A DNA stretch of 60,396 nt from a bacterium (GTDB taxonomy: Bacteria > CLD3 > SB21), in NCBI GenBank assembly GCA_016787925.1, contig JAEUSK010000175.1:1-60396 (forward strand), read 5' to 3'. The notes beneath the pieces were generated by a model that ran no database searches, was not told the DNA's origin, and saw only the letters and a program-made list of their open reading frames with translations. This document shows positions 1,243 through 12,707 of the stretch, piece after piece. Position 1 is the first letter of the stretch. Every line of letters begins with the position of its first letter. A program made the position numbers and the translations under genes.

Positions 1243-2409
1243 TCAATTATTTATTAATGCTACTGACCCTACTCGCACAGCGCTATTGCCGTATCTATGA
1301 TTGATAATGTCTACGGCTTTGAGTAACCATTCTCTACGCTCCTCATTTTGCCTTAGGAGATCGATAGTAAATCTGTCTTGTGTGAATTTTGTTATCCCAA
1401 CTCCAATTAAACGTATGGTGACGCGTCGGTCATCCGCCTTATGGAACAGAGATAATGCCGTTTTGTAGATCACGATAGGATCGTTGGTCGGCTCTACAGT
1501 GATCTGTCGTGTATGGTCTACCCAGTCGGAATAGCGAAGTTTTATCCTAATGCACCGTGCCCTGAGATCCATGGAGCGCAATTCCTCTGAGATTTCCAAT
1601 GACATATCGTGAATCATATTCGATAGGAACCCGGCGTCTCTTGTGTCCGTTGCGAATGTTTCTTCGCGAGAAATTTGTTTTTGTTCTATGGCCGTGATCA
1701 GATATTGCTCACCGTAACCCTTTGCATACGATTGAATAGCCAGCCCCGATTTACCAAACGCCTTGCCGACATAGTCGGAATCGAGCTTGGCAAATTGCCC
1801 GCAGGTTCTGATTCCTCTGGAATTAAGCCTTTCTAACATCACTGCGCCCACGCCGCTAAGGACGCTTACGCTTAAGGGCTCCAGAAATTGAGCCTCTTTG
1901 CCCGGAACGATTTCAATTACGCCGTCCGGCTTGGCCTGATCGCATGCCACCTTTGCAGCCATCTTATTTGAAGCAATGCCGATGGCGCAGGGCAACCCGA
2001 AATTCGACAGGATCGTCTTTTGCAATCGTAATGCAAATTTATATAAGTCCCCGCCAAATATTCTTTCACATCCTGTCCAATCCAGATAAAATTCGTCAAT
2101 GCTGGCCGATTCAAAACGAGGAGCATAATACTTGATCAACGCCTGAATTTTTTCGGAATATTCCTGATAAACCGAAAAGTGTCCGTCGATACGGATCGCA
2201 ACGGGACATTTTTTTTCCGCCATGGCCGTGGACATACCGGCGCGGACGCCGTATTTGCGAACTTCATACGACGCACAGGTCACAACGCCCCGGCTTGACG
2301 AGGGTCCGGCAACCATGATAGGCTTTCCGACCAGACTTGGATTGAGGATCCGCTCCACCGAAACAAAAAACGCCGTAAGGTCGATATGAACTATTCGTAT
2401 AATAGGCAT
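1243..2409 (-). CDS. dinB: DNA polymerase IV (Y-family)
   Basis: HIDLTAFFVSVE, ASYEVRKYGVRAGM, SIDEFYLD, AKPDG; catalytic acidic residues retained. Confidence 0.92.
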   Translation of the reverse strand: MPIIRIVHIDLTAFFVSVERILNPSLVGKPIMVAGPSSSRGVVTCASYEVRKYGVRAGMSTAMAEKKCPVAIRIDGHFSVYQEYSEKIQALIKYYAPRFESASIDEFYLDWTGCERIFGGDLYKFALRLQKTILSNFGLPCAIGIASNKMAAKVACDQAKPDGVIEIVPGKEAQFLEPLSVSVLSGVGAVMLERLNSRGIRTCGQFAKLDSDYVGKAFGKSGLAIQSYAKGYGEQYLITAIEQKQISREETFATDTRDAGFLSNMIHDMSLEISEELRSMDLRARCIRIKLRYSDWVDHTRQITVEPTNDPIVIYKTALSLFHKADDRRVTIRLIGVGITKFTQDRFTIDLLRQNEERREWLLKAVDIINHRYGNSAVRVGSVALINN

Positions 2410-2411
2410 TG

Positions 2412-2810
2412 TCAGTTCATCTGATTTTTAAAAATACTTTGAATTTTAATAAACACGTTCTTTATTCTCATTTTTCGTTCAGGTTCAAATTCACATACAA
2501 TCTCCATGTTTCCAAATAGATCACTCGGCGTTTGCATATTTAGCGTTCTTAAAATACCGAAAGCGTTCTGCTTTATTTTTTCTTTATCCAAATGACTTAA
2601 AGGCGGCATGATGCAGTTGATGTTTCCTAAACTGGAAGAATTTGCTCTGTAGAAATTCAATTGAGAATTAACGACTTTACCGTTTTGAAAGGATATTTCG
2701 ACTCCAATGCGATCCGTGAAAAATTGGAATATATTATAGGTCGATAATATATTATGCAGGTTTCCCGATATTAATTCTTCCTCAGTCACTGTGAAATTGG
2801 ATTTATCCAT
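2412..2810 (-). CDS. Hypothetical protein inside the SOS cassette
   Basis: About 132 aa ORF filling the gap between lexA and dinB on the same strand; ATG at 2810 (track start TTG 2816); no recognised family. Confidence 0.7.
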   Translation of the reverse strand: MDKSNFTVTEEELISGNLHNILSTYNIFQFFTDRIGVEISFQNGKVVNSQLNFYRANSSSLGNINCIMPPLSHLDKEKIKQNAFGILRTLNMQTPSDLFGNMEIVCEFEPERKMRIKNVFIKIQSIFKNQMN

Positions 2811-2820
2811 TAACAACCTT

Positions 2821-3426: not shown

Positions 3427-3455
3427 AATATACCATACAAATGTATGGTAGTCAA
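3427..3455 (-). promoter_or_regulatory. sigma70-type promoter of the lexA operon
   Basis: Minus strand TTGACT-17 nt-TATATT with TG extended -10. Confidence 0.75.
3431..3450. promoter_or_regulatory. Candidate LexA operator (SOS box)
   Basis: Perfect 9-bp inverted repeat TACCATACA-AA-TGTATGGTA between the -35 and -10 of lexA. Confidence 0.7.
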
Positions 3456-3479
3456 GAAAATTATGAAAAAACAAAATAT

Positions 3480-3508
3480 TTGATTTTACGTAACCCATAC
3501 CTTATAGT
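3480..3508 (+). promoter_or_regulatory. sigma70-type promoter of the SRAP gene
   Basis: TTGATT-17 nt-TATAGT; spacer contains a CCATAC half-site; AGGAGG RBS before ATG 3535. Confidence 0.55.
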
Positions 3509-3534: not shown

Positions 3535-4242
3535 ATGTGCGGGCGGTATACTCTGACAGCTACTCTTCGCGTCATTCAGGAGCAGTTTGATCTTGCAAAT
3601 GACGACATCAAAGAGATTATTGACAACTACAGACCAAATTATAACGTTGCACCAACGCACAAAATGCCTATTGTAATTCAGGTAGAAGGAAAAAGGAGTC
3701 TTAAACTAATGCAATGGGGGCTACTGCCAAGCTGGAGCAAGACTGATAAACCCCAATTCAACACGATAAATGCCAAGGGTGAGGAAATTGCACAGAAACC
3801 TACTTACCGCAATCGCATAAAGAATGGACGTTGTCTTGTAATAGCCGACGGATTTTATGAATTTGAAAAACACGGGCAGGATAAATGGGCAGTAAGATTC
3901 ATTATGAAAGATAAAAAACCGTTCGCATTCGCCGGGTTGTATGATAATTGGCACGGAACCACCTCAAAAGGTGAAAAGAAATCCATTTCTTCATTTACAA
4001 TAATTACAACCTCCCCCAATAAAATTGTTGAGCCTGTACACACACGCATGCCGGTCATACTTTCCAGGGCGGACGAAAAAGAATGGCTCAATCCAGACTA
4101 CCAGAAATACGATGATGTGTCACACCTTTTGAAACCCTTCAGCGACAAAAGCATGATGCGGTATTATGCCAATCCGGGAGTAAACAGGGCTGGAAATAAT
4201 TCTGCCGACCTTATTGAGGAGTTTGACAGGAGCGAAGGGTGA
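3535..4242 (+). CDS. SOS response-associated peptidase (SRAP/YedK/HMCES family; abasic-site crosslinking)
   Basis: MCGRY N-terminus, YNVAPT, WGLLPSW, RCLVIADGFYE, HTRMPVIL. Confidence 0.93.
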   Translation: MCGRYTLTATLRVIQEQFDLANDDIKEIIDNYRPNYNVAPTHKMPIVIQVEGKRSLKLMQWGLLPSWSKTDKPQFNTINAKGEEIAQKPTYRNRIKNGRCLVIADGFYEFEKHGQDKWAVRFIMKDKKPFAFAGLYDNWHGTTSKGEKKSISSFTIITTSPNKIVEPVHTRMPVILSRADEKEWLNPDYQKYDDVSHLLKPFSDKSMMRYYANPGVNRAGNNSADLIEEFDRSEG

Positions 4243-11684: not shown

Positions 11685-12707
11685 ATGATTGAAACTATTC
11701 GATGGGTTAATAATTCCATACGAATAATCGATCAAACCGAACTTCCGAGTAAAGAGGTTTACCTTAACATATCAAGAGTAGATGAACTCATAGGAGCGAT
11801 AACGAAGTTACAAGTTCGCGGCGCTCCCGCCTTGGGAATTGCCGGCGCCTACGGTATGGTTTTGGGTTTGCAGGAATTAATAACATCAAACGAATTTGTT
11901 TCCGGCAAGAAAGTAGATGAAATTGCAGCAAGTTTGATTGGAAGCCGTCCAACAGCTGTAAATTTGAAATGGGGCGTATTAAGAATTAAAGGATTGATTG
12001 ATTTGACAAAAAATAAAAAAACAAGTGAAATGATGAGCAGCATGATATCAGAGGCTCATGCAATTTTGGTGGAGGATATTGAATCTTGTGTTGCACTGGG
12101 ATTACATGGGGCTCAGCTGGTTAGTGATAAATTTTCGATCTTAACTCATTGTAACACAGGTGGACTGGCAACCGGCGGTTTCGGTACGGGTTTGGGTATT
12201 ATTGTGACGGCGCACCAGCAGCATAAGCGTATTCATGTATATGTGGATGAAACCAGGCCGCTTCTGCAAGGCGCCCGACTAACCTCATGGGAGTTAACAA
12301 AAGAAGGAATTGATCACACGATAATTGCCGATAACATGGCGGGTTATTTAATGGCTCAGAAGAAGGTGGATTGTGTCATTGTTGGCGCAGACAGAATTGC
12401 CAAGAATGGAGACGCTGCTAATAAAATCGGCACATATTCGCTGGCCGTTCTGTGTGAAAAGCACAAGGTTCCGTTTTACGTAGCAGCCCCTACTTCAACT
12501 ATTGATTCGGCGGCGAAAAACGGCAATGACATACCGATTGAAGAACGTAATCACGATGAAATCACTCATTATCATGGGAATCGCATCGCACCTGCTGGCG
12601 CCAGAGCGTATAACCCTGCATTTGACGTAACGCCGGCATCAATGATAACGGCAATCATAACGGAAAAGAAAATATATAAAGGGCCGCATTATAATTTCGC
12701 GGACTGA
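11685..12707 (+). CDS. mtnA: S-methyl-5-thioribose-1-phosphate isomerase
   Basis: VRGAPALG, SRPTAVNL, LTHCNTGGLAT, ETRPLLQGARLT, NKIGTY, NPAFDVTP. Confidence 0.95.
   Translation: MIETIRWVNNSIRIIDQTELPSKEVYLNISRVDELIGAITKLQVRGAPALGIAGAYGMVLGLQELITSNEFVSGKKVDEIAASLIGSRPTAVNLKWGVLRIKGLIDLTKNKKTSEMMSSMISEAHAILVEDIESCVALGLHGAQLVSDKFSILTHCNTGGLATGGFGTGLGIIVTAHQQHKRIHVYVDETRPLLQGARLTSWELTKEGIDHTIIADNMAGYLMAQKKVDCVIVGADRIAKNGDAANKIGTYSLAVLCEKHKVPFYVAAPTSTIDSAAKNGNDIPIEERNHDEITHYHGNRIAPAGARAYNPAFDVTPASMITAIITEKKIYKGPHYNFAD

Follow-up and report, generated by a model that had tools for sequence, protein, structure and literature searches.

The lexA promoter in the window (the whole 60,396-nucleotide stretch of DNA that we analysed) contains a 20-bp palindrome that, judged from its sequence and from the genes it accompanies, is very likely the operator of this organism's single canonical LexA. 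This reading is well supported because the palindrome is conserved before orthologous lexA genes, is present before a separate dinB gene and co-varies with the recognition helix of LexA; the same three lines of evidence support an earlier suggestion, made in an initial annotation of the window, that the site is a lineage-specific LexA box serving autoregulation. Repeated change of the binding motif is classically illustrated by LexA, and there is continuing debate over how a motif can shift while the regulon stays under control. By the count given in PMC8565304, 17 LexA motifs had been reported by 2021. The locus would add a further one, from an uncultured lineage. In the open literature that we searched on LexA motifs (main texts; Bacteroidetes, Ignavibacteria, Chlorobi and other groups) no description of the box was found, and it appears to be a sequence version not yet described, belonging to little-known uncultured bacteria, in which it would very probably act as the operator of LexA's own operon.

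The site reads TACCATACAAATGTATGGTA, a perfect inverted repeat of 9 + 9 nt around a non-symmetric AA centre, and lies 63 to 44 nt 5' of the lexA start. It fills the 17-nt spacer of the predicted lexA promoter and extends into both hexamers, by 1 nt into the -35 and by 2 nt into the -10; this promoter has 10 of 12 hexamer matches in the promoter scan and an extended TG before its -10. The initial annotation had described just such a 9 + 9 bp palindrome in the spacer and edges of TTGACT/TATATT, as both the sequence and the promoter scan confirm, and it had seen no full copy before recN, mutY or nth; with up to 3 mismatches allowed, the 20-mer is indeed its own sole match in the window (mean of 0.03 matches over 100 shuffles). 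Across the whole genome (3,595,920 bases in 312 contigs) it is the sole match with fewer than 3 mismatches, the next best having 3. The coordinates of the box and its neighbours are collected in the table.

Table. Features of the lexA locus in the window, and the everted half-sites of two related loci.
Feature	Position	Strand	Basis and remarks
dinB-type Y-family polymerase (IMS + IMS_C)	1243..2409	-	Pfam; third operon gene
orf134, 134 aa, no family assigned	2412..2816	-	directly after lexA
lexA, 188 aa	2821..3387	-	Pfam LexA_DNA_bind (PF01726) and Peptidase_S24 (PF00717); NCBIfam TIGR00498
lexA promoter, predicted, sigma-70-type	3427..3455	-	promoter scan; -35 TTGACT 3455-3450, 17-nt spacer, -10 TATATT 3432-3427
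LexA operator (SOS box), predicted	3431..3450	none	TACCATACA-AA-TGTATGGTA; clade consensus TACCATA-N6-TATGGTA = CCAT-N8-ATGG
SRAP promoter, predicted	3480..3508	+	promoter scan; TTGATT-17-TATAGT
SRAP (YedK/HMCES-type) gene	3535..4242	+	Pfam; divergent from lexA
Everted half-sites, L011 (G008)	about 30-55 nt 5' of lexA		
Everted half-sites, L007 (G009)	contig positions about 11843-11885		

The lexA product has the features of a canonical LexA. It scores 173.2 bits against TIGR00498 (cut-off 110.95), matches the E. coli LexA chains of solved structures at E = 4e-30, and combines an N-terminal wHTH, in which the recognition helix is S38-L-G40-T-I-Q-D-H45, with an S24 peptidase whose Ala80-Gly81 cleavage site and Ser113/Lys150 dyad are conserved. 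A recA gene is present in the source genome (G000).

To compare the promoter with those of relatives, we took the 220 nt upstream of 12 lexA orthologs from the same order, most of them from one family, so that the loci are not independent of each other. Seven of the 12 regions contain 20-mers in which at least 8 of the 9 arm pairs match. A profile built on perfect palindromes from these very loci, and hence giving a count that is not independent of them, places a site in the same promoter frame at 10 of the 12. In all ten of these standard loci one copy lies between a TTGAC-type -35 and a TATATT or TATAAT -10, and two of the ten (G005 and G006) have two copies. The box of G004 is identical to the window's 20-mer; those of G003 and G001 read TACTATACAAATGTATAGTA, that of G010 reads AGCTATACATTTGTATAGTA, and those of G005, G006, G011, G016 and G017 take forms such as TACCATAAATATTTATGGTA. 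The resulting consensus is TACCATA-N6-TATGGTA, the inner AC...GT of the window's box being confined to the genus and G010. When the intergenic regions of the genus and G010 are aligned, CTTGACxA-CYATACAWWTGTATRGTATATT is the sole conserved block.

At the two remaining loci, G008 and G009, the same 9-nt half-sites are everted (right half, 3 nt, left half), so that a palindrome of 21 bp arises with the -10 TATAAT at its centre, and the usual left half is degenerate. These everted operators do not fit a simple model of one dimer on one palindrome. The initial annotation had named conservation upstream of orthologous lexA genes as a test of its proposal, and with standard sites at ten and everted half-sites at two of the 12 loci the proposal was not refuted.

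Outside the lexA promoters, a stand-alone dinB gene in G005 has the box 51 nt upstream, in an identical TTGACT-box-TATATT frame and with neither orf134 nor SRAP alongside. The promoter of this gene (L135 1501-1535) holds, besides the normal box, a third half-site in the everted relation seen in G008 and G009.

The letters of the box follow those of the protein. In this clade of LexAs the recognition helix has the form x-x-[G/K/R]-[T/A]-[I/V]-Q-D-H. LexAs with Gly40 (the source, G004, G005, G006, G011, G016, G017, L034 and L035) are found with CCATA half-sites, and those with Lys40 or Arg40 (G003, G001, G010, G009 and G008) with CTATA half-sites. Residue 40 thus corresponds to box positions 4/17 (C/G for Gly, T/A for Lys/Arg) in 14/14 cases, with both half-sites changed symmetrically. 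The 14 LexAs form one clade with support 99/99, on whose tree the residue-40 label needs at least 2 independent changes, and the order-level co-variation rests on two events. In alignment, residue 40 of the window's LexA falls on Asn41 in the recognition helix of E. coli LexA, a residue that PMC5999292 describes as contacting operator bases through a water molecule; the exact base contact that residue 40 may make in the source LexA is drawn by analogy with it.

An independent set of loci came from metagenomes, in which a scan by N-terminal alignment gave 80 loci (L177-L256) with 74 unique upstream regions, and patterns were counted within 140 bp upstream of lexA. CYATA-N6-TATRG is found at 18 of the 22 loci of the Gly helix class, at 0 of the 52 loci of all other helix classes, and in 8 of 15,200 shuffled sequences. 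The YPA helix class has CCGWAC-N4-GTWCGG at 31/31 loci and the SPN class CTGT-N8-ACAG at 3/3; none of the three box patterns occurs at the 11 loci of the SLR class. Helix class therefore predicts upstream box class cleanly in this set, and the sequence of the box tracks the helix of the adjacent LexA within the order and in metagenomes alike. Distant LexAs with Lys or Arg at helix position 40, many of them encoded by a lexA inside an operon, have none of these boxes (0/16), and any residue-to-base rule is for that reason clade-specific.

These results also bear on whether some factor other than LexA might use the palindrome, for example a regulator of SRAP or the orf134 product, with its operator happening to lie within the lexA promoter. 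Two observations would fit such a factor: the box is about 100 nt 5' of the SRAP start in G000 and G004, and orf134, to which no function has been assigned, always adjoins lexA. We nevertheless regard it as very unlikely: the box accompanies lexA and dinB regardless of their neighbours, and its sequence tracks the LexA helix within the order as well as in metagenomes. Among 13 genomes, SRAP is divergent from lexA in 3 (G000, G004 and G008), nearby in G009 and unlinked in 9, and in these 9 of 13 the SRAP orthologs have no box upstream. The G005 dinB has its box with neither orf134 nor SRAP beside it, and the model of orf134 has no match to a DNA-binding fold.

Could the symmetry instead be a by-product of a conserved strong promoter with an AT-rich spacer, and no repressor be involved? 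The conserved block does include the promoter hexamers, the spacers are AT-rich, and the source genome has only one strong site. Spacers, however, are normally not conserved in sequence, whereas these half-sites are kept across LexAs of about 45% identity and change symmetrically, from C4/G17 to T4/A17. Second copies lie outside the spacer in G005 and G006, L034 and L035 have two abutting sites, and the pattern goes with a single helix class of LexA, all of which makes a bare promoter highly improbable. That the element is an RNA or DNA hairpin (an attenuator, terminator or processing site) is scarcely credible: a 40-nt stretch does fold at -11.4 kcal/mol (z = -4.2 against shuffles), but the box lies upstream of both predicted transcription starts, there is no T-run, terminator-like site or Rfam match, any stem in relatives would be almost pure A-T, and the everted versions keep the half-sites and not one particular stem.

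If the palindrome is the LexA operator, a LexA dimer would place one winged-helix domain on each TACCATA half-site of CCAT-N8-ATGG. Since the box spans the spacer and reaches into both promoter hexamers, bound LexA would be expected to keep RNA polymerase off the lexA promoter and so to repress lexA, orf134 and dinB. Upon DNA damage, RecA filaments would trigger self-cleavage of LexA at Ala80-Gly81 through Ser113 and Lys150, and the freed operator would then allow the translesion polymerase, the 134-aa protein and new LexA to be made. What we observed is the position of the box, its conservation, its link to LexA and dinB and its co-variation with the LexA helix, along with paired half-sites suited to a dimer; binding, repression and damage induction are what we infer.

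We then asked how far the regulon extends. Searched without mismatches, the 18 genomes of the order contain TACYATA-N6-TATRGTA 9 times (7 lexA, 1 dinB and 1 unrelated); by our own arithmetic, chance alone would yield about 2 matches in the roughly 64 Mb involved. Once one mismatch is tolerated, forward and control counts in these genomes are similar. An exact match in G012 between PBP2-like and TolC-like genes we read as chance, and no lexA ortholog was found in that genome. In the source genome, a profile of 9 distinct sites gives the lexA box a score of 28.4, the next site 20.9 and all others at most 17.1, with the reversed genome reaching up to 18.2. The site scoring 20.9 lies 276 nt before a TonB-receptor gene. 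With one exception, the matches ranking below the lexA box score no higher than the reversed-genome control, and the whole group (before genes for the TonB receptor, a histidine kinase, an adenylate cyclase, Band-7 and VWA proteins, an MFS transporter, a GCS2 ligase and an SMC protein, or inside ORFs) was rejected as regulon members. The one-mismatch matches on C11, C71, C132 and C293 of the source genome, which are inside ORFs or have no promoter frame, were likewise rejected.

The initial annotation had proposed looking for the motif before recA and uvrA as well. No site was found upstream of recA, uvrA or the second dinB of the source genome, where the best profile scores are below 2, and the dinB orthologs of family f2 that are located elsewhere have no site either. 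Because of these absences the regulon looks minimal, comprising lexA, orf134 and dinB, with a separate dinB included within family f1. Support for a multi-gene regulon is thin: dinB is linked through the operon, one stand-alone dinB, that of G005, has a box of its own, and the source genome has no other strong site. There the regulon seems limited to the lexA-orf134-dinB operon, perhaps with the addition of the divergent SRAP gene. This suggests that these genomes keep only a minimal damage response, made up of a self-regulated LexA, one translesion polymerase and one uncharacterised protein.

A one-mismatch box in G003 (L257 1755-1774; G003:C1:370054) lies in a TTGACT-17-TATATT promoter before OsmC-like and thioredoxin-like genes, 1.5 kb beyond the lexA operon of that genome. 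We set it aside as a regulon member, as it has no counterpart in G000 and one-mismatch counts are no higher than those of the control pattern.

It is possible, though less likely than not and not supported by the present results, that the box also controls SRAP, whose predicted promoter has a -35 beginning 30 bp beyond the box edge. The initial annotation had pointed to a CCATAC half-site in the spacer of this promoter. The hexamer is indeed there, at 3495-3500, but it is missing from the equivalent SRAP promoters of G004, G003 and G001, all three of the genus relatives that have SRAP; not being conserved even inside the genus, it was rejected as a half-site and is best read as chance.

The second gene of the operon, orf134, is probably co-transcribed with lexA. 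In the order (L144-L152, L012, L014) it lies directly downstream of lexA in 10 loci, including those of family f2, in which dinB is elsewhere; the copy in G016 has an in-frame stop. No Pfam or NCBIfam family matches the protein, and atlas matches are all below 0.9. Its AlphaFold model is confident (pLDDT 82.6) and has the order alpha-beta-beta-beta-alpha-beta-beta, a fold with only weak matches: the best PDB hit by Foldseek is EsaG/DUF600 at E = 2e-3, and VIA-align compares the two at Z = 5.8, which is below the tool's stated noise level. Modules of Y-family polymerases with a small accessory protein, such as PolY with a stand-alone ImuB-C, are described in PMC12926913, and the present operon resembles these in placing the gene for a small protein just before that of a Y-family polymerase in a damage-response operon. 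ImuB-C is a beta-barrel according to the same source, unlike the model of orf134, and searches with Pfam, NCBIfam, Foldseek and VIA-align gave no sequence or fold match between orf134 and known accessory proteins. We therefore consider orf134 a candidate for a new SOS-operon protein.

Set beside known LexA boxes, the palindrome is best seen as a derived variant in a graded series and not as an unrelated motif, because it has the E. coli spacing, shares the register of the YPA-class boxes with their TACC/GGTA flanks, and is connected to them by a hybrid site. The initial annotation had called it unlike CTGT-N8-ACAG or GAAC-N4-GTTC. For the letters this is correct; for the architecture it is not, given the 4-N8-4 spacing, the shared register and the hybrid form.

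The SOS box of E. coli and the Gammaproteobacteria is given as CTGT-N8-ACAG in PMC8565304, and PMC5999292 describes the E. coli operator as 20 bp long and bound by a dimer. The box here resembles it in several ways: it is a 20-bp dyad whose two tetrads are separated by 8 bp, its centre is AT-rich and each end is TA, and it overlaps the core promoter of a canonical LexA gene, autoregulation being predicted in the present case. The regulons differ in size, from one operon here to the over 40 genes that PMC8565304 reports for E. coli LexA. The N8 spacing is common to both boxes, whereas the tetrads are CCAT/ATGG (or CTAT/ATAG) here and CTGT/ACAG there, and the recognition helix is S-L-G-T-I-Q-D-H here and S-P-N-A-A-E-E-H in E. 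coli. A CTGT-N8-ACAG box, AACTGTAAATTTTTACAGTA, is found upstream of metagenomic LexAs whose helix likewise ends in QDH.

The Cheo-type box of Gram-positive bacteria is (C)GAAC-N4-GTTC(G). The window's box is in the same register: metagenomic YPA-class boxes, TACCG[AT]AC-N4-GT[AT]CGGTA, contain the Cheo-type core and share TACC, AC-N4-GT and GGTA with the window's TACCATAC-N4-GTATGGTA. Metagenome locus L200, whose LexA has a third class of helix, carries a hybrid site, TACCATACAAACGTACGGTA, of the form TACCATAC...GTACGGTA; in G021 and G030, which are only distantly related, GAAC-N4-GTTC takes the corresponding place in the promoter. The box here departs from the Cheo type in the first two letters of GAAC, which are exchanged for others to give ATAC-N4-GTAT in the genus, and the AC/GT is also lost in most relatives, where ATAA-N4-TTAT lies within CCATAA-N4-TTATGG; G[AT]AC-N4-GT[AT]C is found at 0 of the 22 Gly-class metagenome loci. 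Compared with the Cheo-type box, the conserved part has moved outward to CCATA/TATGG, which is presumably what the protein recognises. LexAs labelled Ignavibacteriaceae (215 aa, with a different helix) have GAAC-like boxes.

Two further systems share parts of this arrangement. For the Balneolaeota, PMC7739468 reports a LexA box that is a direct repeat, TTACACATATTTTWTACATA, and a regulon with lexA and translesion polymerases at its core, to which an SRAP peptidase and recA also belong. The present case is likewise one of a canonical LexA in a little-studied group, with a focus on lexA and a translesion polymerase and with an SRAP peptidase gene alongside. It differs from the system described there in that the box is an inverted repeat of another sequence, and in that recA has no site. 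The non-canonical Bacteroidetes repressors described in PMC8565304 are similar in being S24-peptidase proteins with palindromic operators before dinB/umuDC-type genes and SRAP. According to that source they have a CI-like N-terminal domain, are not LexA homologs and use two motifs; in contrast, the source repressor has the LexA wHTH (PF01726) and passes the lexA equivalog, and its motif is unrelated to theirs.

Among the 20 species genomes of the host phylum in the collection searched, a LexA of this type is found in 12. The closest named LexA among the matches listed belongs to an uncultured Bacteroidota bacterium (74% identity), followed by Ignavibacteria-labelled MAGs at 51-52%. A broader proposal, which in all its parts together we hold to be possible and rather doubtful, is that the box could serve an entire, hitherto undescribed lineage of LexAs as SOS operator, a lineage spanning a small candidate phylum and some Ignavibacteria-labelled MAGs; that it might bridge CGAAC-N4-GTTCG to 4-N8-4 boxes such as CTGT-N8-ACAG; that residue 40 may set base pair 4/17 (Gly with C:G, Lys/Arg with T:A); and that LexA would also work on the everted half-sites of G008 and G009. 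If true, the lineage would provide a natural, step-by-step record in which to test how the LexA motif shifts. The relatives offer graded boxes (CCGWAC, the hybrid form, CCATAC, CCATAA and CTATAC) with matching changes in the recognition helix, and the residue-to-base rule is therefore directly testable as one residue and one base pair. The consensus is also of practical use for predicting SOS regulons from these genomes.

In six of the 18 genomes (G002, G007, G012, G013, G014 and G015, 91-100% complete) the query used here picked up only short S24-domain matches and no lexA ortholog, and their dinB genes, where found, have no box. A second S24 peptidase is encoded in the source genome (G000:C121:89768-90190, minus strand); it is 140 aa long and lacks an HTH. 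Its gene has no box upstream, is not beside a Y-family polymerase, overlaps an upstream 601-aa ORF and is itself followed by a 544-aa ORF; most relatives encode similar S24 proteins of about 141-145 aa. Finally, the lexA promoters of L015 (G021), L019 (G030), L036, L042-L044, L081 and L089 have xxATAC-N4-GTATxx or GAAC-N4-GTTC between TTGAC and TATAxT, and lexA promoters with one or the other of these patterns come from uncultured phyla labelled Elusimicrobia, Omnitrophota, Nitrospirae and Bipolaricaulota.
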